DNA of 64,000 nt from an uncultured Magnetococcales bacterium (GTDB taxonomy: Bacteria > Pseudomonadota > Alphaproteobacteria > UBA2136). Position numbers and translations under genes: made by a program. The notes under the pieces were generated by a model. The model ran no database searches. It was not told where the DNA came from and saw only the letters and a list, made by a program, of their open reading frames with translations. Shown piece after piece: positions 27,280 through 36,711 of the stretch (position 1 is its first letter; each line of letters starts with the position of its first letter). The stretch is taken from NCBI GenBank assembly GCA_963974105.1, contig CAXBBG010000001.1:706793-770792 (forward strand). Direction: 5' to 3'.

Positions 27280-28980
27280 GTGATAAATGGTTTTAGGGGG
27301 AGTGTATTTAAAGCAACGTCTTTTGTTGTTTTATTTGCCTGCATAAACCTAGTTATTATATCTGCATTTGCAGCACCTCAGCTTCCAGGCTCTGCTGATG
27401 TAAACCGTGTGAAACCGCTACCCGAAATAAAAATTGAGAAACAAAAGCCCGCAGAAATAAAAATTCCTAAAGAATCTAGTTTTGTTAAAATACCCGAATC
27501 TGCTAAAGCCGTTAGATTCGTATTAAATGATATTTTACTAACAAATGCACATGTTTTTAGCGAAAATGAGCTCGATGACATCTACAGGCCATTTTTGGGT
27601 AAAGAAGTAACTTTAGATTATATTTGGCAATTTGCTGGGCAAATAACCGAACGCTATCGCCAGAAAGGTTTTTTCTTGTCACGCGCCTATGTGCCTTTGC
27701 AAGAAATTAATAATGGTGTGGTAAGTATTAACATTGTAGAAGGTTATATTTCTGATATTGAAATGACAGGTGACAGTGTTGATAGTAAAATTATTAAAAA
27801 TACTTTAGCTAAACTAAAGGCTGAAAAGCCACTTAATTCTAAGGTTTTAGAATCTACCATCCTTAGGCTTAATGAATTGCCTGAACTTACATTTAAGGGT
27901 TACCTTGAACCTGCCGCAGGTAAAACAGATCAGTCGGTTAAACTTACTTTAAACGTCACACGTGAAAAAAGTGAAACGTTTATGCAGGTTAGTAACTATG
28001 GTTCACTTTACTTAGGGCCATGGCAAGCAATGATAAGTAACAATTCAAATCTTATTGAACATCAAAATACATCGCTCACGCTATTAAGCAGCATCCCAGC
28101 TAAAGAACTGAAATATGTTTCTTTAGCACAAACAATACCGCTTAATGACAAATATGACTTCCAAATAAACACTGCCTATGCGACATCAAGCCCTGGTGAA
28201 GAATTAGAAGTTAATGATATCATAAACACCTCAACATCAATTGGGTTTAGCTTCATTTATAAGCCTATTAGACAACGACAAAAGAACTTAACATTGTCGA
28301 TTGAATTTGACTACAAAGACACAAATGGTGACATTTTACAAAACACCCCCTTAACGAAAGATAACATGCGTGCAATAAGGGTTCATGCAAACTTTGATAC
28401 AAATGACCGCTTTAATGGCTATAACTATATTGACCTAGGCTACAACCAAGGTATTGACGTCTTAGGTGCAAGTAACAAGGGTGACTTAAACTTATCGCGT
28501 GCTGAAGCAGAGCCTAACTTTAGTAGCGTTACTGTTCGTTACATTCGCCAACAATGGTTAAGCACGAATTGGCTTACTCTTGCTGGGGTAAGCGGTCAGT
28601 GGGCATCGGGTCCACTATTTTCTTCAGAAGAATTTGGATATGGTGGGCAGTCATTTGGTCGTGCGTATGATTCATCAGAAATTACGGGTGACCATGGCCT
28701 TGCTGGTATGGTTGAATTGAGATACTTTGGTCTTAAACCGTGGAAGGGTATCCAAACAAAGCCATTTGCTTTCTACGATCTTGGTAAAATATGGAATGAA
28801 GACAAAGATAGTAACAGTATTACCGCTTCATCAGCAGGATTTGGCTTCCATAGTGAACACAAGTCAAATACCAGCGCAAGCTTTACCATGGCATGGCCTT
28901 TAACCAAAAAAATTGATAACCCTATTTACGGAAACAACAAATCACCAAGGGCAATGCTACAAATAAGTTATAAACTGTAA
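27280..28980 (+). CDS. TpsB (ShlB/FhaC-family) two-partner secretion outer-membrane transporter
   Basis: POTRA region (…LNDILLTNAHVFSENELDDIYRPFLGK…INIVEGYISDIEMTGD) followed by a C-terminal beta-barrel ending in …QISYKL. Starts with GTG. Confidence 0.8.
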   Translation: MINGFRGSVFKATSFVVLFACINLVIISAFAAPQLPGSADVNRVKPLPEIKIEKQKPAEIKIPKESSFVKIPESAKAVRFVLNDILLTNAHVFSENELDDIYRPFLGKEVTLDYIWQFAGQITERYRQKGFFLSRAYVPLQEINNGVVSINIVEGYISDIEMTGDSVDSKIIKNTLAKLKAEKPLNSKVLESTILRLNELPELTFKGYLEPAAGKTDQSVKLTLNVTREKSETFMQVSNYGSLYLGPWQAMISNNSNLIEHQNTSLTLLSSIPAKELKYVSLAQTIPLNDKYDFQINTAYATSSPGEELEVNDIINTSTSIGFSFIYKPIRQRQKNLTLSIEFDYKDTNGDILQNTPLTKDNMRAIRVHANFDTNDRFNGYNYIDLGYNQGIDVLGASNKGDLNLSRAEAEPNFSSVTVRYIRQQWLSTNWLTLAGVSGQWASGPLFSSEEFGYGGQSFGRAYDSSEITGDHGLAGMVELRYFGLKPWKGIQTKPFAFYDLGKIWNEDKDSNSITASSAGFGFHSEHKSNTSASFTMAWPLTKKIDNPIYGNNKSPRAMLQISYKL

Positions 28981-29046
28981 CAATTTACAGAAACATAAGA
29001 GTCAGAAACAAAAAAGATAAATTATTAAAGGTAATTATAAGTATAT

Positions 29047-32000
29047 ATGTTTGAAAACAAGATGTTAGGGGTGTATTTTCTATGTGGCGTTAGCATGCTA
29101 GCGCTTTCACCTATGTCTTCTGTTTATGCCAACCCAGCAGGTGGTGTTATTTCGGGTGGTGCTGCCACTATAACATCCAATGCAAATAAACTAGATATTC
29201 ACCAACAAACAAACCGAGCTGTCATTGACTGGCGCAGCTTTGATATTGACGTTGGTGAACATACAGAATTTCACCAACCTTCTTCAAGTGCCATTGCTTT
29301 AAACCGTGTGAACAGTGTTGACCCTTCCCAAATAATGGGTAAATTAAGTGCCAATGGTAATGTTGTTCTCATCAACCCAAATGGTTTGTTTTTTGGCGCA
29401 AGTTCACGTATTGACGTAAACGGCCTACTTGCAACTACTGTTGATATTGATACAGACGACTTTATGAATGGGAGCATGCATTTTAACAAGCCAGGTAAAT
29501 CTGGTGCTGGCATTATAAACCAAGGGCTTATTACAGCAAAAGAAGCTGGGTTAGTCGGTCTCGTTGCGCCAAATGTTATAAATAGCGGTATTATAGAAGC
29601 GAAGTACGGGCAGGTACATCTTTCATCAGCTGATAGTATGGTTGTGGATTTTTATGGAGACGGTTTATATCAACTTAAAGTAAGCGACGCAGTTAAATCG
29701 CAAATTGTTCAAAATACAGGTACGCTTATTTCTGAAGGCGGCGTTATTGCTATCACCGCAGCTTCAGGTAAGGACATTGTTAATAGCCTTATCCACATTG
29801 AAGGTGAAGTTTTAGCGCCAACCATTACTCAAAAAGAAGGTCGTATTATTATTGCGGCGGCAGGTTCTAACGCTGTAGAAGGTAACATAACTGCAAGCAA
29901 AGGTGTTAAAAACGGTAAGTCTACCGTTGTTTTATCAAAAGCTTACATAGACGCTTCTGGAGATGAAACAGGCGAAAAAGGTGGTGTGGTGGAAATTACA
30001 GCCGACCAAATATTTTTAACAGATAATTCAGTTCTTAATACAAACGGGCATTCAGTTGAAAATTATAACGAAGCCGCTATAGGAACAGCTACAATGACTG
30101 CAAGCAAAGAAGTGCGCAGTGCCGATGAATTTCTAGCCCATGAAAACCGTGTGGGAGGTAGCATTAAAATAGGTGGCGACTATCTTGGTAAAGGTGACAC
30201 AGCAGCGGCTGAATATGTCTATGTTTCACATGACAGTTACATTATTAATGATACCATTCAAAGTGGTGACGCTGGGCGCACAATTGTTTGGGCCGATAAC
30301 ACCACTGAATTTAGCGGTAACGTCTTTGCCCGTGGTGGTTTAAAAGGAGGTCACGGTGGTTTCCTTGAAACTTCTGGTAAAATCAATTTACTGGCAGGGG
30401 GCTATGCTGACCTTCAGGCAAAAAGTGGATTTAAACAAGGTACATATTTATTAGACCCTTCCGTTATTAATATTTACGGTAACATTGACTCAGCTTTTAC
30501 AACTTCAAACCTTATTAACCACTGGGACTTTGAAGAGGGTTCAGGCGCAACAGTAACTGATCAAATAGGCAGCGATGACGGCGCAATAACGGGTGCCGTA
30601 TATAATGCCGACACACCAAGTATCCTTATGCCAACAAGTAATGACTACAGTCTAGATTTTTCAAATGACACCGTGAATTTTGGTGACATTAACGCCATAG
30701 AACTAGCACCTGTAACTGTTTCATTCTGGGCAAAATCAGACACAACAAATGCAGACCAAGGATTCTTATACAAAGGGATTCATAGTACAAACCAACCACT
30801 GCTTATCTGGCGTGATAATGCTGTAGGTTCTGGTCAACAAGCTGGTAACAGTAATGCCATTTCAGTGCTTGTTTATGACGGCGCAACTCAGGATTGGGTT
30901 TCGACACCAACAAATAGCTTTAATGACACAGACTGGCACCATGTAGCTGCAACACTTGACCCTGTAACAAACAACCAAATAGAAATATTTATTGATGGTG
31001 TCTCAATGCAAACAGGTGCAATGGCAAGCAATGGTATTAGAGCTAACGCAAATAACTTAACAATGGGTAAAGCAACGTCAGGCGGTACAGGTTTAACAGG
31101 TCACATGGACGATATGCGTATTTACAATACAGTACTTGATGCTAAAAACATTGAAGAATTAAGCGGTAATGCCTTTACGGTAAAAGGTTTAGAGCTGATG
31201 TCGCAAACAGCAGATATTATCCTGCAAGCTGATAATACTATCAACCTTGACTTTGACGGCGAGCAATTAGACCTAGCCAATGATAAGAGTATTACCTTGC
31301 AAACAATAAATGGCAACATTACAGACAATTCAGCTGGCACTATACGCACCAATAGAACGGGTGCGGGTGGTAACATCACAATGACTGCTGGTGGTTCTGG
31401 TAGCATTAACCTTGATACGACTAACTTAGAAGCATTAAGTGGCGGTGTTGTTAATCTTTCTGCTGGTGGTAATGTTAACCTTAAGCAAGTAAGCGCTTTA
31501 AACCTTAATAGCGTAACAGGTAATACTGTAACCATACAAACGACAGGTTCAACTGCCGATATAACGCTTAATAATACAATTACAGCTAGCAATAGTGGTA
31601 ACGCCATAATTATGGCTTCAGGTGATGATTTTATTAACAATGTCGGTGCAACTGTATTGAATACGACTGACATGAATGGTAGATGGTTGGTTTATAGCGA
31701 GACACCAACGGCTAATACTCGTAACAGCTTATTACCAGACTCAAGTGACTATGGTTTTACCTATGCGACACTTGCACCAGGGGCTGTTACGGCAGGTAAC
31801 CACTTTATCTATTCAAACGCGACTAGGCCAACCCTTACATATACTGTAAATGATAGTAGCCTCGAATATGGAGATACCTATGGTGGCTCATCAATAAGTT
31901 CTGTTTCTGGTCTATTAACAGGTGATACATTGGCGAACATTGGCTTAACAGGCTCGAACTTTTTCACAACCACCTATACAGCAGGTGATAATGCCGGCGT

Positions 32001-32619
32001 CCATTCAAATGTATTAACATCAACAGCTGGCACATTGGCGAACCAACTTGGTTACTCATATGCCTTCAATGCTGGCGACTTAACAGTTAACAAAGCCGAC
32101 TTAACAGTAACACTTATTGACAATGCACCAACAAAGGTAGAGGGCAATGTCAATCCAATTTTTGACCTTTCGTATACAGGCTTCAAGCTTGCTGACAACG
32201 CATCAGTTGTTGATACAATTAATGTGACAACACTGGCCGATACATCAAGCGGTGCGGGGGTATACAATATTGATATTGCAGGTAGTGATAACAACTACAA
32301 CCTACTTATAACAAATCCATCAGGTAAATTAACTGTCACCGCCAAGCCTGCAAGTAGTATACCTACGAAAGCTCAGATTTCAGCAAAACCTACAATAAGC
32401 GTTATTAATACCGCTACCAATAAGTCTATAAACAACTCAAATATAAACGTTCAATACAACGGTGCTAATAATTTATATGAAGAGGCAACTATTCTTGATG
32501 GGCTTATAAACATACATCCACGTGTTGCAGCCTTGTTCAAATTAAAGGGAGCAGACACACAAGTGACAACTGGTGACAGTAGGTGGAAACGTGACACCGT
32601 ATTACGTGGGCTTGAATAA
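29047..32619 (+). CDS. TpsA exoprotein with an N-terminal TPS domain, an internal LamG-like domain and a C-terminal MBG-like repeat
   Basis: TPS domain (NPAGGVISGGAATIT…IDWRSFDIDVGEHTEF…ANGNVVLINPNGLFFG). LamG-like segment (DWHHVAATLD…IFIDGVSMQTG…DDMRIYNTVL). MBG-like segment (YGDTYGG…GDLTVNKADLTVT). Confidence 0.85.
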   Translation: MFENKMLGVYFLCGVSMLALSPMSSVYANPAGGVISGGAATITSNANKLDIHQQTNRAVIDWRSFDIDVGEHTEFHQPSSSAIALNRVNSVDPSQIMGKLSANGNVVLINPNGLFFGASSRIDVNGLLATTVDIDTDDFMNGSMHFNKPGKSGAGIINQGLITAKEAGLVGLVAPNVINSGIIEAKYGQVHLSSADSMVVDFYGDGLYQLKVSDAVKSQIVQNTGTLISEGGVIAITAASGKDIVNSLIHIEGEVLAPTITQKEGRIIIAAAGSNAVEGNITASKGVKNGKSTVVLSKAYIDASGDETGEKGGVVEITADQIFLTDNSVLNTNGHSVENYNEAAIGTATMTASKEVRSADEFLAHENRVGGSIKIGGDYLGKGDTAAAEYVYVSHDSYIINDTIQSGDAGRTIVWADNTTEFSGNVFARGGLKGGHGGFLETSGKINLLAGGYADLQAKSGFKQGTYLLDPSVINIYGNIDSAFTTSNLINHWDFEEGSGATVTDQIGSDDGAITGAVYNADTPSILMPTSNDYSLDFSNDTVNFGDINAIELAPVTVSFWAKSDTTNADQGFLYKGIHSTNQPLLIWRDNAVGSGQQAGNSNAISVLVYDGATQDWVSTPTNSFNDTDWHHVAATLDPVTNNQIEIFIDGVSMQTGAMASNGIRANANNLTMGKATSGGTGLTGHMDDMRIYNTVLDAKNIEELSGNAFTVKGLELMSQTADIILQADNTINLDFDGEQLDLANDKSITLQTINGNITDNSAGTIRTNRTGAGGNITMTAGGSGSINLDTTNLEALSGGVVNLSAGGNVNLKQVSALNLNSVTGNTVTIQTTGSTADITLNNTITASNSGNAIIMASGDDFINNVGATVLNTTDMNGRWLVYSETPTANTRNSLLPDSSDYGFTYATLAPGAVTAGNHFIYSNATRPTLTYTVNDSSLEYGDTYGGSSISSVSGLLTGDTLANIGLTGSNFFTTTYTAGDNAGVHSNVLTSTAGTLANQLGYSYAFNAGDLTVNKADLTVTLIDNAPTKVEGNVNPIFDLSYTGFKLADNASVVDTINVTTLADTSSGAGVYNIDIAGSDNNYNLLITNPSGKLTVTAKPASSIPTKAQISAKPTISVINTATNKSINNSNINVQYNGANNLYEEATILDGLINIHPRVAALFKLKGADTQVTTGDSRWKRDTVLRGLE

Positions 32620-32801: not shown

Positions 32802-33206
32802 ATGGCGGCAAGACCTATGGTTAAGCCGCTTGCTAAAGTGACGAAGGGTGTGCGTGTAAAAGTTACTACAGTAAAACGTAATAAGTTGGTTGACTCTGTT
32901 AAGTTTGAGCCTAAGCAAATTCAAGCTAAATATAAACATAGCTCTAAAGCTTATGGTTTGGAAGGCAATTATAATAAAGCTAACGCTGCCAAGTTTGAAT
33001 CCTCTATTAAAAGTCATATGAAGAACCTTGATACAAAGGTTATAAAAGGCACGTATCTTAAAAAACCTGCAAAACACTTTTGCAATAAGGAAACAAATGT
33101 TAATGCTGTGACGAAAGAAGGTAAGTTTGTGACTACAAATAAACCTACTGAAAAACAAGTGATGCATTTATTAAAAAGTGGAAATTTAGGTGGAGGTTCA
33201 AATTGA
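32802..33206 (+). CDS. small lysine-rich basic hypothetical protein, candidate toxin
   Basis: 134 aa and very K-rich. RBS AAAGG upstream. Its stop overlaps the next ORF's start by 4 nt (ATGA). Confidence 0.4.
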   Translation: MAARPMVKPLAKVTKGVRVKVTTVKRNKLVDSVKFEPKQIQAKYKHSSKAYGLEGNYNKANAAKFESSIKSHMKNLDTKVIKGTYLKKPAKHFCNKETNVNAVTKEGKFVTTNKPTEKQVMHLLKSGNLGGGSN

Positions 33207-33517
33207 TGGATAAAAAAGCTCTTGAGTTGATATATTTGATAGAGGAAACTCTCACTGGGAAAATGAGACCTAATGACCTTCATGATAAGTTTTGGTCAGA
33301 TTTTTGGCCTAATACTAAAAATGATTGGCCAAACAAATCCTCGGAGGAAATTCAACAGCTAATAGCGTTAGATATTTTTGACGCCTTTGAGTGCTTTGAT
33401 GGTGAACATGCTATAACTGAAGCCAATGATGTACCATATGAACTAACAGAGGATGAATTCCTGAAAAAATGTAAAGAATTCCTGCCTAAGTTAAAAAAAG
33501 CCGTTAAGAAAATATGA
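33203..33517 (+). CDS. small acidic hypothetical protein, candidate immunity partner
   Basis: 104 aa and rich in D/E/W. Translationally coupled to 32802..33206. A terminator follows. Confidence 0.45.
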   Translation: MMDKKALELIYLIEETLTGKMRPNDLHDKFWSDFWPNTKNDWPNKSSEEIQQLIALDIFDAFECFDGEHAITEANDVPYELTEDEFLKKCKEFLPKLKKAVKKI

Positions 33518-33527
33518 CGAACTAAAA

Positions 33528-33552
33528 GCACCTCTTCGGAGGTGTTTTTTTT
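33528..33552 (+). terminator. Rho-independent terminator
   Basis: GCACCTC-TTCG-GAGGTGT hairpin followed by a T8 run. Confidence 0.55.
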
Positions 33553-33676
33553 ACTAAATTTTGGCAACACACAGTTAATAATTTGTTTCAACTCCTGTCT
33601 AAGTGGAGCCTTGATTATGAAAACCCGATTAACAGAACACCGCCTATGCGAAGTAAGTAGGTTTTTTTGTGTGAAT

Positions 33677-34930
33677 TTACCTCACCACCAGCAACTCATC
33701 CCAACAACTGGTATAAGCAGGGCTTTGGTGCTGGCACAGGTTGCGCCATTTGCCGTTGGGGTTGGAAATGCCGAAGCGTAAGGTGTGTTTACCCATGGCG
33801 CTGTTAAGTTTGTCGATAGCGCCCATTAAGCTTTCACTGCGCTTGTTATCAACCACGCTGAATAAACTTGGCTGGTGCGTGCCTTGCTCTTGAATGCCGT
33901 GGAGGCATATGCCCGCTTTTTTGAACTCTACACCCGCTTTGAATATCTCATTGATGCCCTTTATGGCGGCTTTGGTTAGCACGGCGGTGTCACTTGTTGG
34001 GTCATCTAGGGTGATAACTGTAGAGTTTGCGTAATATTCACCTTTAAAGGGGCTAGAGCCTGCGTAAACTGTTATCATGCGTGCTTCTGTGCTTTCGCCC
34101 CGAAGTTTTTCTGCGCCTATGGCGGTGAATGTGCCAACGGCTTCTTTCAGGGTTTTAATATCGCTTACTGGGTTACCAAAAGAACGAGAGCTGATAATCT
34201 GTTTACGGTGTTCTGGCTCTTCACCAAAACTGTAGCAAGGCGTACCTTGTAACTCTAAAACCGTTTTTTCCGATACCACGCTTGTAATGTCACGCACTTG
34301 GGCAGGGTTGCACTGTGATAACTTCCACGCCGTGTTTAGTCCTAAACCTGTAAACTTTTCATTTAAGCACCTGCCAACACCCCACACGTCACCCACATCC
34401 ATACGCTGAAGGACAGAGCGCCTTGCTTGCAAGCTATCCATCAAATAGACACCTTCGGCTTGTTCGTATTTCTTCGCTATATTTGAAGATGCCTTGGCGA
34501 GCGTTTTCGTTGGTGCAATACCGATAGATACAGGAATACCCGTCCATTGTTCAACTTGTTTTCTTATACGCTGACAAAGTGGTTTTAGTTCATGTTCTGG
34601 AATGCCAGAAAGGTCTAGAAAAGCTTCATCCACTGAGTAAACCTCAATAGCAGGGGCCATGTCACGCAAAACGCTCATCACACGACGGCTCATCTCCCCA
34701 TAAAAGGATAAATTACCGCTGATACATTCGACATTATGTTCCGCCACCAGCTTTTTCATTTTAAAAACAGGCGCACCCATTTTAATGCCCAGCGCTTTCG
34801 CTTCGTTAGAGCGAGCCACAGCACAACCATCATTCGATGACAGCACAATAACAGGGCGGTTATTCAGGCTTGGCCTAAACACCCGCTCACAGGATACAAA
34901 AAAATTGTTACAGTCGACTAAGGCGTACAT
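33677..34930 (-). CDS. umuC: Y-family translesion DNA polymerase UmuC
   Basis: The N-terminus MYALVDCNNFFVSCERVFRP…VVLSSNDGCAVARSNEAKALGIKMG is colinear with E. coli UmuC (MFALCDVNAFYASCETVFRP…). Full length, 417 aa. Confidence 0.9.
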   Translation of the reverse strand: MYALVDCNNFFVSCERVFRPSLNNRPVIVLSSNDGCAVARSNEAKALGIKMGAPVFKMKKLVAEHNVECISGNLSFYGEMSRRVMSVLRDMAPAIEVYSVDEAFLDLSGIPEHELKPLCQRIRKQVEQWTGIPVSIGIAPTKTLAKASSNIAKKYEQAEGVYLMDSLQARRSVLQRMDVGDVWGVGRCLNEKFTGLGLNTAWKLSQCNPAQVRDITSVVSEKTVLELQGTPCYSFGEEPEHRKQIISSRSFGNPVSDIKTLKEAVGTFTAIGAEKLRGESTEARMITVYAGSSPFKGEYYANSTVITLDDPTSDTAVLTKAAIKGINEIFKAGVEFKKAGICLHGIQEQGTHQPSLFSVVDNKRSESLMGAIDKLNSAMGKHTLRFGISNPNGKWRNLCQHQSPAYTSCWDELLVVR

Positions 34931-35670
34931 GGATATATTATAATAGGCTTACTATCACTCAATGGAAATGCTGTTACAAAAACTTCTGGAAAGTCAGATA
35001 GGTCCTTCAAGTGTTCTTGTATTAAAGATGAAATTTCATGATCATCTATGCACAGTTTTATTACACCCATAGCATTGTCGTTACAATAAACAATGAGCCT
35101 CACATCATCAGGGTAACCTTTAGCTGATTTCTTTTTATAAGCGCCTTTAAATCGTTGAAAGGCCATATCATCCAAGTCATAATTTGAATTTGCTATGTGT
35201 GCATGTTCCCACGATGATTCTAACTCCAAACTCACACGCTTAAAGTGCTTGATAGACCCTGTACATGAAACATGCCTATGCAATGAAAACTTAAGCATTC
35301 TGAGTCTCGCATCTGTTCCATCAACAGTGCTCACTATTTGATAACCTTTGCCACCAATGTAAATATCAGCTCCATTTTCATCATTTTGATTGATTTGAAA
35401 AATAGCATATTGCTTTTCTAAAGCAATAGAATAGACAGCCTCAAGTTCCTCAAACCATTGCTCTCTTTTGCTAAAATCCCCTGACTGGAAGTATTCATGA
35501 CGTCTATAGGCACTTTCAAACACAGAATTGCGTATTTCATAACCTTTCATCAAGAATTCACACAAATCTTTACCAGTGAACTTTTTCAGCAAATTCTCTT
35601 CGGAAAAATGCTTTTCTAAATCATCAAAAGTGAACACGAGCCTAAACCCCTTTAATAATATTAGTGACAA
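34918..35670 (-). CDS. hypothetical protein encoded between umuD and umuC
   Basis: 250-aa ORF on the same strand. It overlaps the umuD stop by ~29 nt using a TTG start, and overlaps the umuC start by 13 nt. An internal ATG (M41) is an alternative start. No motif I recognise. Confidence 0.55.
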   Translation of the reverse strand: MSLILLKGFRLVFTFDDLEKHFSEENLLKKFTGKDLCEFLMKGYEIRNSVFESAYRRHEYFQSGDFSKREQWFEELEAVYSIALEKQYAIFQINQNDENGADIYIGGKGYQIVSTVDGTDARLRMLKFSLHRHVSCTGSIKHFKRVSLELESSWEHAHIANSNYDLDDMAFQRFKGAYKKKSAKGYPDDVRLIVYCNDNAMGVIKLCIDDHEISSLIQEHLKDLSDFPEVFVTAFPLSDSKPIIIYPCTP

Positions 35671-36199
35671 CGCCCCACATGCCTAGCTCTTCACCTTCGG
35701 TAAGTTCTATGTTGGGAATGTCGTCATTTTCTGCTATGAGCGTTACACGGCCACCGAAACGCTCATAGCGCTTAACTGTTAGGTCCCCATCAACGACAGC
35801 TATGATGATTTTGCCGTTTTTAACTTCTAAGCTTCTATCAACAATTAACAGGTCACCATCGTCGATACCCGCGTTAATCATCGACTTACCACTTGCGCGC
35901 ACGAAGAACGTCGCCGCAGGGTGCTTTATGAGGTGTTCGTTGAGGTCGAGTTTTCTGTCCACATGGTCACTCACCCCGAAAGGTGTACCTGCTGAAACCG
36001 TTCCCTGCATTAAAGGAATATTATAATCAGCCTTACCCGCAAGGAATGACTTTACATCATCCACCTTATGTTCAGGCACGCGCATAACCTTGGTTGCACT
36101 ACCGTACTGCCCCGTCCCCTTCGGGCGACCTGCACCCATTCTTTTTCCACCGTGATTTTTCATAACTTGATTATTGTTACATTTAATTGAAATTATCAA
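35642..36199 (-). CDS. umuD: UmuD-like S24 peptidase with an N-terminal basic AT-hook-like extension
   Basis: The C-terminal domain is colinear with E. coli UmuD ([40 protein letters not shown] vs [40 protein letters not shown]), with the Ser and Lys catalytic dyad present. The N-terminus carries [14 protein letters not shown]. Confidence 0.85.
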   Translation of the reverse strand: [185 protein letters not shown]

Positions 36200-36711
36200 G
36201 ATAATTTTTATTAAGTGCGTAAATTAATATTGAATATATTCCCAGAAGCTTATATTTCTAGTAAATTTTATTAAAAAATTTGCAACTGTAGTGAAGGGCT
36301 ACAATGTATATGATCAACAAATACAAATAGATGTACTATTTTTTAAATAGAACACTACCATGAAAAACGAGGCGTATAACAACAGGGCTGAACAGCATGC
36401 TATATCCATTCAAGAAGTGCTCGTAAAACCATTTATTTTTGAATATAGGGAAATTATCATTGGCGCATCTGTCAGTATTACGTTGATGATAACTTATTTT
36501 GCTGTGTAGTTGTAGTTAGTTTAAATGAGAGTATAATACTTTATATATTAAATATTATGTATTACATGATAAGGCATTGTATCTTGTTAAAAGTGGTGGC
36601 CGTTAGGATGCATTTATCATGGCTGGTATATGGTCGAAATATAAGGTAACTTTCTTTAAAGCAGGAGGGTTGATAAAATTTTGAATTAATTAAAAGGATG
36701 CATGAAATTGT

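Follow-up and report, generated by a model that had tools for sequence, protein, structure and literature searches.

We describe a gene, here termed X, that lies between a umuD-like gene and umuC in a 64-kb stretch of DNA from an uncultured Magnetococcales bacterium (assembly GCA_963974105.1, contig CAXBBG010000001.1), referred to below as the window. The reading that we favour, with a probability that we place at about one half, is that X at present fills the cargo slot, fixed in position, of a mobile, self-contained, damage-induced umuD-cargo-umuC cassette, and that it acts as an autonomous effector independent of the DNA polymerase V (Pol V) genes on either side of it.

The operon and its variable slot

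The umuD-like gene, X and umuC follow one another in this order on the minus strand and constitute one tightly packed operon, with the following features:

36170..36199, minus strand: sigma-70-type promoter, the best in the region, with TTGATA and AATAAT separated by an 18-nt spacer (10/12 positions matched)
36166..36181, minus strand: invariant 16-mer TGTAACAATAATCAAG, a candidate operator, which overlaps the -10 hexamer and ends 2 nt before the umuD ATG
35642..36163, minus strand: UmuD-like gene, 173 aa, with a 45-residue basic N-terminal extension (MKNHGGKRMGAGRPKG...) followed by a UmuD/LexA-type self-cleaving domain
35647..35653, minus strand: Shine-Dalgarno-like AAAGGGG within the final umuD codons, serving any slot occupant
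34918..35637, minus strand: gene X, 239 aa, GTG start, the slot cargo, with an N-terminal helical domain and a predicted PD-(D/E)xK-like core
34918..34930, minus strand: overlap of X and umuC, 13 nt, ATGTACGCCTTAG, found by inspection of the sequence
33677..34930, minus strand: umuC, 417 aa, encoding a Y-family polymerase in which the catalytic acidic residues are intact and a clamp-binding-like motif is present
33529..33544, minus strand: intrinsic-terminator-like hairpin (CACCTC-CGAA-GAGGTG, then a T run) between umuC and a convergent toxin/immunity pair

The sole good promoter-like site of the operon is the one upstream of umuD (36199-36170) and the sole terminator-like site within 33400-36450 is the hairpin 3' of umuC, so that a single transcription unit is predicted to span all three genes; scans with Rfam and for tRNAs gave no match inside it. 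This agrees with the co-transcription of X with the Pol V genes that had been proposed in a first-pass annotation of the window. The same annotation was right in placing an uninterrupted same-strand open reading frame (ORF) between a UmuD-like gene and a full-length umuC, both of which are confirmed by domain and profile matches, at a junction where the two genes otherwise abut, as they do in the outgroup operons described below. It had given X a length of 250 aa and an overlap with the umuD stop codon, neither of which holds: the TTG at 35670 is only the mechanical limit of the ORF, and the 239-aa protein starts from GTG 35637, 4 nt past the umuD stop (TAG 35644-35642) and without overlap. 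This start is backed by a Tara gene call (P0001) and by the start of an 83%-identical homologue, while the start of a 52%-identical homologue lies four residues downstream. The proposed overlap with the umuC start is real (13 nt, 34930-34918); hence the suggested coupling on both sides stands as far as both junctions are tight, with a 4-nt spacing in place of the umuD stop overlap. Inspection of the operon sequence revealed no Shine-Dalgarno sequence ahead of umuC, and its translation therefore probably relies on termination and reinitiation after the cargo gene.

To delineate the relatives of this operon, we searched with the window UmuC and defined a clade of umuC genes at least 70% identical to that of the window, the next relatives being at most 48% identical. 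The clade comprises five full cassettes and one partial one, in six genomic contexts, and the slot is filled in every one of them, by four unrelated AT-rich gene types:

X, 239 aa: window, L001-L009 and L010
309-aa type: L018-L020, with umuC 83% identical to that of the window
180-aa type: L021, with umuC 79% identical in direct alignment (80% by BLASTP)
fourth type, at least 131 aa: L022/L023, with umuC 70% identical; the last 131 codons are on the contig and umuD lies past the contig end

All cargo types are single genes; comparison of all four revealed no pairwise similarity, and profile searches gave no match of any of them to known toxin or antitoxin families. The 309-aa protein has a predicted C-terminal transmembrane helix and matches phrog_7611 (E 6e-14), as well as hypothetical genes located on conjugative plasmids away from umuDC; its relative on a Klebsiella plasmid adjoins a restriction endonuclease and is close to a Shedu-family gene. 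For the 180-aa protein we found only a marginal plasmid match. The frame around these genes is invariant in its geometry: every umuD is 522 nt and every umuC 1254 nt long, the umuD end AARGGGGTTTAR is kept in 5/5 cassettes with the cargo start codon 1-6 nt past the umuD stop, and in all cassettes the 3' end of the cargo overlaps, or lies at most 9 nt from, the conserved umuC start ATGTACGCC. Two metagenome-assembled genomes (MAGs) of one sister species each hold two cassettes on separate contigs, one with X and one with the 309-aa gene (GCA_002687415.1 with L002 and L020, GCA_002420405.1 with L005 and L019, respectively), so that a single genome can harbour paralogous cassettes that differ in cargo. 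A candidate additional cassette (P0011/L066) was discarded, as it is the L018 cassette on a short contig with a diverging end. In four outgroups (L016, L063, L064 and L065), namely a Legionella plasmid, which carries the closest plasmid umuD (a long UmuD, 56% identical), and three metagenomic operons (umuC 45-48% identical), umuD and umuC are directly adjacent and the slot gene is absent. The survey of related umuDC loci suggested in the first-pass annotation thus found the slot occupied throughout the clade, and X itself in three contexts only, with unrelated genes elsewhere.

We also note that in the outgroup L064 (umuC 45% identical) a RelB/ParE-YafQ toxin-antitoxin pair follows umuDC on the same strand (L064:4861-5393), which we regard as another instance of Pol V genes accompanied by a toxin module as cargo.

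The distribution of cargo types does not follow that of the frame genes. The window UmuC is 83% and 79% identical to those of the 309-aa and 180-aa cassettes and only 74% and 71% identical to those of the other X cassettes; the UmuC of L010, which carries X, is closest to that of L023 with the fourth cargo (83%), and the UmuD of L001, also with X, is closest to that of L021 with the 180-aa gene (92%). This discordance between the cargo type and the phylogeny of both umuD and umuC implies exchange of cargo by recombination, and the pattern of conservation indicates that the swaps proceed through conserved arms on both sides of the slot. Over umuD codons 151-174, synonymous-codon identity among all cassettes amounts to 0.61-0.70, and over umuC codons 1-30 it is 0.72, compared with mostly 0.24-0.6 inside the two genes. 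Between the window and L001, dS is 0.36 for X, 1.43 for umuD and 1.69 for umuC, and nucleotide identity rises from about position 35776, inside the 3' end of umuD, going from ~75% to 85-95% over the umuD 3' end, X and the umuC 5' end, with ~60% in the 3' half of umuC. Homology between cassettes extends from the -35 hexamer to the umuC stop codon; a search at the ends of the cassettes revealed neither terminal repeats nor att-like sites.

Base composition also distinguishes frame and cargo. Cargo genes have 33-36% GC, as opposed to 46-48% in umuD and umuC. At third codon positions, the GC content (GC3) is 0.47-0.48 in umuD and umuC and 0.30 in X, the host mean being 0.30 (sd 0.025, 28 other ORFs of the window); the contrast holds in 6/6 cassettes despite saturated synonymous sites, which leads us to regard the frame genes as resistant to amelioration. 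The idea that X is a recent foreign insertion in a native operon was rejected, as it is X that has a host-like GC3 and umuD and umuC that are atypical.

The first-pass annotation had listed three functional options for X, namely an accessory factor of translesion synthesis, a regulator of UmuD processing, or unrelated cargo such as a defence gene. Unrelated cargo is favoured by the four unrelated occupants, the discordant trees and a 31%-identical homologue of X outside umuDC (see below), and the interchangeability of the occupants disfavours the first two. The same observations bear on the more general proposal that the middle genes are accessory or regulatory components of Pol V, acting e.g. 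in lesion end processing, polymerase loading or control of UmuD cleavage, with translational coupling fixing their ratio to UmuD and UmuC. Both junctions are tight, umuC without a Shine-Dalgarno sequence of its own would depend on translation of the middle gene, no cassette of the clade has an empty slot, and a nuclease-like fold (predicted for X, see below) would suit DNA processing. Nevertheless we consider this proposal improbable, though the strongest of the alternatives, as it would have to accommodate four unrelated occupants (one with a predicted C-terminal transmembrane helix), cargo types at odds with the polymerase phylogeny, X-like and 309-like genes found away from umuDC, and the canonical Pol V operons and four outgroups, which manage without a middle gene.

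A rare family with a predicted nuclease-like core

Several lines of evidence indicate that X is a genuine gene. From base composition, the probability that a stop-free run of 239 codons at 36% GC arises by chance is estimated at ~3e-8; homologues exist at 83%, 52% and 31% identity; and dN/dS between the window gene and its 83%-identical homologue (L001) is 0.24, which speaks for purifying selection. We therefore rejected the possibility that X is a pseudogene or a chance ORF. The family is very small: searches of 5.8 billion clustered proteins (word-indexed, first by single-sequence query, then by profile) and an exhaustive HMMER search of 1.8e9 representatives found only four clusters at 90% identity, and GTDB genomes, JGI metagenomes and IMG/VR yielded no further relatives. 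The first cluster is the window's own protein (the Tara gene call P0001); P0002 (83% identical) comes from Tara and MAG assemblies that carry the label Magnetococcales or Proteobacteria UBA2136, and P0003 and P0004 are 52% and 31% identical, respectively. In the alignment of all four, 47 columns are invariant, some of them with polar or charged residues, including Glu64, Asp91 and Gln100.

In P0002 (L001-L009) and P0003 (L010), as in the window, X is flanked by a UmuD-like gene of 173 aa and a umuC of 417 aa, and the genomic surroundings of these two cassettes are wholly different. P0004 (L011, L012) follows a GGDEF gene, with no umuD before it and no umuC start within the 30 nt remaining to the contig end, which argues that the X family is not intrinsically tied to Pol V. 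As a side observation, the last 118 residues of that GGDEF gene (L011:2-358) are 55% identical to, and share the endpoint of, a GGDEF gene (L001:7568-9235) located just upstream of the L001 cassette; this may be a trace of the site where X was captured, or a coincidence.

In line with the statement of the first-pass annotation that X matches no family that can be named, neither X nor its three homologues gave a credible match to Pfam, NCBIfam, PADLOC, PHROGs or PDB sequences at E up to 10, and described PD-(D/E)xK families were not among the sequence-profile matches either. Weak matches to YciH, HPF and KilA-N profiles were inconsistent between family members and were dropped. The AlphaFold2 model with the window protein as target has a confidence score (pLDDT) of 38.5 and is too poor to be used alone, while that with the 52%-identical homologue as target reached pLDDT 69 and a predicted TM-score (pTM) of 0.72, i.e. 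medium confidence, with pLDDT 76-95 over the N-terminal helices and a three-stranded core and lower values past residue 100. In this model the core runs helix, strand, strand, strand, helix, strand; Glu64 falls on helix 1, Asp91 opens strand 2, and Gln100 belongs to strand 3. The structure that it matches best is that of a tRNase toxin of contact-dependent growth inhibition (CDI) systems; a comparison with the viral structures of BFVD gave no match. On balance the model argues for a PD-(D/E)xK nuclease-like fold of the X core, and X is probably a new family within this superfamily. The annotation had envisaged that a structural match might expose X as a known mobile-element passenger with an independent promoter; the predicted model suggests a nuclease-like fold, and the only good promoter-like site lies before umuD.

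The CDI toxins in question, CdiA-CT 1026b (PDB 4G6V) and E479 (5J4A), are PD-(D/E)xK tRNases (PMC9086364). Unlike CdiA-CT, the C-terminal end of a secreted CdiA, X stands alone as a cytoplasmic protein and has an additional helical domain at its N-terminus; it lacks a carrier domain and a small downstream partner or immunity gene, and shows no detectable sequence similarity to the CDI toxins. The motif of X reads Glu64...Asp91...Gln100-Ile-Val102, with valine at the position of the canonical lysine in 4/4 members. The catalytic signature of the superfamily consists of a Glu/Asp on helix 1, an Asp opening strand 2 and (D/E)-x-K on strand 3, and in X the invariant Glu64, Asp91 and Gln100 fall in these elements. 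The X family has a lysine 2-3 residues before Gln100, and His131-x-Lys133 is invariant.

The predicted fold also brings to mind a selfish gene. Phages harbour seg and mob genes between conserved genes, and X might likewise be a free-standing homing-endonuclease-type gene that cuts empty or otherwise filled umuD/umuC junctions and is copied in by repair. Such a model agrees with the fold and with the young tract of X in the window and L001. It is hard to reconcile with the other occupants, which show no nuclease features and one of which looks membrane-anchored, with the failure to find empty target sites (all six cassettes of the clade are filled), or with P0004, which lies behind a GGDEF gene and not at a conserved-gene junction of such kind. 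Moreover, X matches no profile in Pfam, NCBIfam, PADLOC and PHROGs, known homing-endonuclease families included, it lacks the canonical catalytic lysine, and ordinary homologous recombination accounts for the mosaic equally well. We thus regard homing as unlikely.

The UmuD-like protein and a proposed mechanism

Both frame genes keep the hallmarks of Pol V components. UmuC contains the Pfam domains IMS, IMS_C and DUF4113 and aligns over its full length with NCBIfam PRK03609 (E 1.7e-118, 396.2 bits, below the curated cut-off of 431), far better than with any model of DNA polymerase IV (Pol IV), and we classify it as a divergent UmuC-type polymerase; it keeps Asp6, the catalytic SVDEAFLD and a clamp-binding-like QPSLF at 353. 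The UmuD-like protein matches Pfam PF00717 (Peptidase_S24, E 1e-29) and NCBIfam PRK10276 (139.7 bits, above the cut-off of 110). In an alignment with E. coli UmuD, it is 43% identical and possesses the cleavage site and the Ser/Lys dyad of the family: Ala58-Gly59, Ser93 and Lys130 pair with Cys24-Gly25, Ser60 and Lys97 of the E. coli protein.

The N-terminal arm (residues 1-45, window 36029-36163) is basic and Gly/Arg-rich, and no recognised DNA-binding domain was found in it. Its beginning, MKNHGGKRxGAGRPK, also opens a 73-aa ORF on an IMG/VR viral contig (L062:5001-5222), the remainder of which weakly resembles ribbon-helix-helix proteins (RHH_3, E 0.16). Long UmuD proteins with the same arm occur on plasmids of Legionella, Acinetobacter and Synechococcus as well; on the Synechococcus plasmids the long umuD is followed by toxin-antitoxin genes, with no umuC in that place.

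The region upstream of umuD is conserved between cassettes. The -35 element is kept in the 5/5 cassettes with known upstream DNA, beyond which the flanks are unrelated, and the 16-mer TGTAACAATAATCAAG is identical in five cassettes although synonymous sites elsewhere are saturated. It has a single exact copy within the window and may serve as an operator; a search for a clear palindromic operator at the promoter revealed only a weak TTGA...TCAA symmetry. A scan of IMG/VR for the 16-mer gave 35 matches, none leading into a umuD N-terminus, and these were taken as chance. In 5/5 cassettes the umuD ATG lies 6 nt past the -10 hexamer without a Shine-Dalgarno sequence (window 36161-36199, minus strand), and the cassette mRNA is therefore probably leaderless. 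Synonymous conservation is also unusually high (0.67-0.82) over the first 40 umuD codons.

A precedent for a UmuD homologue acting as a repressor is UmuDAb of Acinetobacter, a LexA-like repressor of error-prone polymerase genes (PMC4807011, PMC11332147), whose N-terminal domain is needed for repression (PMC4807011). Like the UmuD-like protein of the cassette, UmuDAb belongs to the UmuD family and has an extra N-terminal region; in UmuDAb this region is required for repression, and the protein cleaves itself after DNA damage. It is larger and uses a co-repressor, DdrR, whereas the cassette protein has a short Gly/Arg-rich arm with no recognisable DNA-binding domain and only a putative repressor role. 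By analogy with UmuDAb, the arm, the Ala-Gly site, the Ser/Lys dyad and the invariant 16-mer lead us to propose that the UmuD-like protein represses its own operon. It would bind the candidate operator at its promoter, as UmuDAb or LexA do, and RecA-ssDNA filaments would trigger its self-cleavage, so that the operon would be switched on only after DNA damage or phage attack. X would be made solely on derepression and, rather than being a Pol V subunit, would act alone on DNA or tRNA as a nuclease-type effector that arrests growth, aborts infection or attacks foreign nucleic acid.

A number of points weigh against this scheme. Damage induction, repression by the UmuD-like protein and the nuclease activity of X are all things that we infer. 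A toxin-like effector normally has an immunity or antitoxin partner, and none was found beside X. The absence of an empty slot from the clade fits a need for the middle gene, and hence a tie to Pol V, equally well. The sample is small, with five full cassettes and one partial, and the cassettes of the window and L001 have no recognisable defence gene nearby. Finally, with valine in place of the (D/E)xK lysine, X may be inactive or work differently. Among the CDI members of the PD-(D/E)xK superfamily, the acidic position may be taken by Ser or Asp and Lys may be replaced by His (PMC9086364), so that by this analogy X could still be catalytically active.

Defence-rich surroundings and relation to known systems

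In 4/6 contexts the cassette lies beside genes of type I restriction-modification (RM) systems, PD-T7-3 or PDC-S02:

L018: PD-T7-3 (L018:3192-4487; PADLOC E 1e-136) directly upstream of umuD, with a type I HsdR before it
L010: complete type I hsdM-hsdS-hsdR upstream
L021: type I methyltransferase and specificity-subunit fragments, PDC-S02 and a GIY-YIG/Schlafen-helicase gene downstream; PDC-S02 (L021:8184-9128, E 4e-146) is ~1.7 kb past umuC
L022: type I methyltransferase downstream

The homologues of the defence gene PD-T7-3 and of the candidate PDC-S02 in L018 and L021 are full-length and come from marine MAG or metagenome contigs. It is only such neighbouring genes that match PADLOC-DB 2.0.0, in which X, umuD and umuC have no match at E up to 1 and the other cargo genes none below E 0.001. 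The link to defence raised in the first-pass annotation is therefore supported by the neighbourhoods, while the variable slot, the defence-island setting and the nuclease-like fold had not been foreseen there.

In the window itself the operon is flanked by an orphan convergent colicin-D-like toxin with a putative immunity gene on one side and by SulP and cytochrome bd genes on the other, and the L001 cassette is flanked by the GGDEF gene and genes of a two-component system. The first of these neighbours (32802-33517, plus strand) comprises a stand-alone 134-aa colicin-D-like tRNase domain (PF11429, E 1.6e-12), whose gene overlaps by 4 nt a 104-aa ORF without a family match, likely the immunity gene. 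Both genes closely follow a TpsB/TpsA two-partner secretion pair (27280-32619), and together they resemble an orphan toxin/immunity module of the CDI type. Their orientation is convergent with that of the umuD-X-umuC operon, with which they share the terminator hairpin; they are unrelated to X.

The setting of the cassettes invites two further explanations. According to one of them, all three genes form a single anti-phage or abortive-infection system, in which the UmuD-like protein senses RecA filaments, the variable gene provides the effector, and the polymerase is an obligatory part. In a modular immune or stress version of this scheme, which we hold to be no likelier, the UmuD/LexA hybrid would both derepress the operon and license the polymerase, which would work with the interchangeable effector; for example, the polymerase would mark or mutate invading DNA and the effector (X, the 309-aa protein or others) would halt the cell. 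A conserved frame around a variable middle is how defence systems with exchangeable effectors are usually laid out, the frame genes hold their exact lengths (522 and 1254 nt) and atypical GC in all hosts, and the neighbourhoods listed above point the same way. Yet UmuD and UmuC keep every hallmark of a working Pol V and match no PADLOC model, no defence system with a Y-family polymerase was found in our literature search, and co-location with islands also fits plain carriage by mobile elements, on which umuDC homologues are often found. We accordingly find a three-gene defence system with an obligatory polymerase unlikely.

The least probable explanation, in our opinion, is that the middle genes adjust the activity of the restriction or defence systems beside them, as damage-induced restriction-alleviation or anti-restriction factors that guard the chromosome under repair. 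Type I RM genes adjoin 4/6 cassettes, and Hiom and Sedgwick are said to have reported in 1992 that UV-induced alleviation of EcoK restriction involves umuDC; our literature search on umuDC in restriction alleviation was empty. The window and L001 cassettes, both with X, have no RM neighbour, and the predicted fold of X is nuclease-like, unlike the DNA-mimic or Ral-type anti-restriction proteins. On the other hand, umuDC homologues border anti-defence islands on conjugative plasmids (bioRxiv 10.1101/2023.02.15.528439).

Returning to the reading of X as autonomous cargo in a mobile cassette, we regard the dinB operon of E. coli as its closest documented analogue. In dinB-yafN-yafO-yafP, an SOS-regulated Pol IV operon, the YafNO toxin-antitoxin module between dinB and yafP is present in about half of the strains and precisely absent otherwise (PMC3105422). 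Both are Y-family polymerase operons, damage-inducible in the case of dinB, in which an autonomous unit is inserted between two conserved genes with overlapping or fused junctions. They differ in that the dinB cargo follows the polymerase gene, varies by presence and absence and not by replacement with unrelated genes, and has an antitoxin, whereas the slot of the cassette lies between the Pol V genes and is always filled, by one of four unrelated single genes with no visible antitoxin.

The canonical Pol V operons (umuDC, mucAB, rumAB and impCAB) share with the cassette a UmuD of the self-cleaving S24 type with cleavage site and dyad, a UmuC with catalytic acidic residues and a clamp-binding-like motif, and frequent location on mobile elements. 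In the canonical operons, as in the four outgroups, nothing separates the two polymerase genes, which abut or overlap; impC lies upstream of them and not between. Only the cassette has the 45-residue basic UmuD extension, the cassette-specific invariant promoter/operator region and the middle gene. Another instructive comparison is with the P2/P4 hotspots and the genes embedded in type I RM loci, such as prrC, which are defence hotspots with conserved flanks. In hotspots of the P2/P4 type, as in the cassette, conserved flanks surround AT-rich, poorly annotated genes that replace one another by recombination, and restriction and defence genes abound in the neighbourhood. The slot of the cassette differs from them in being inside an operon, between the genes for subunits of one enzyme, with no promoter or terminator of its own and with translational coupling preserved.

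Our literature search yielded no description of an intervening gene in umuDC, nor of UmuC in anti-phage defence. Cargo within an SOS-type polymerase operon is already known; what is new is a variable and coupled slot between two Pol V genes. The reason for the frequent carriage of umuDC homologues by mobile elements is an acknowledged open question, on which the cassette bears, as it uses a Pol V operon as a chassis, with its own promoter, a possible operator, a ribosome-binding site borne by umuD, and an exchange slot in which coupling is kept. It also reveals four unannotated protein families, including X, a putative nuclease with four known clusters. If the operon is induced through RecA, as the features of UmuD suggest, the cassette would be a natural plug-in that expresses its cargo only on DNA damage or phage attack, tying together translesion synthesis, the SOS response and defence islands.

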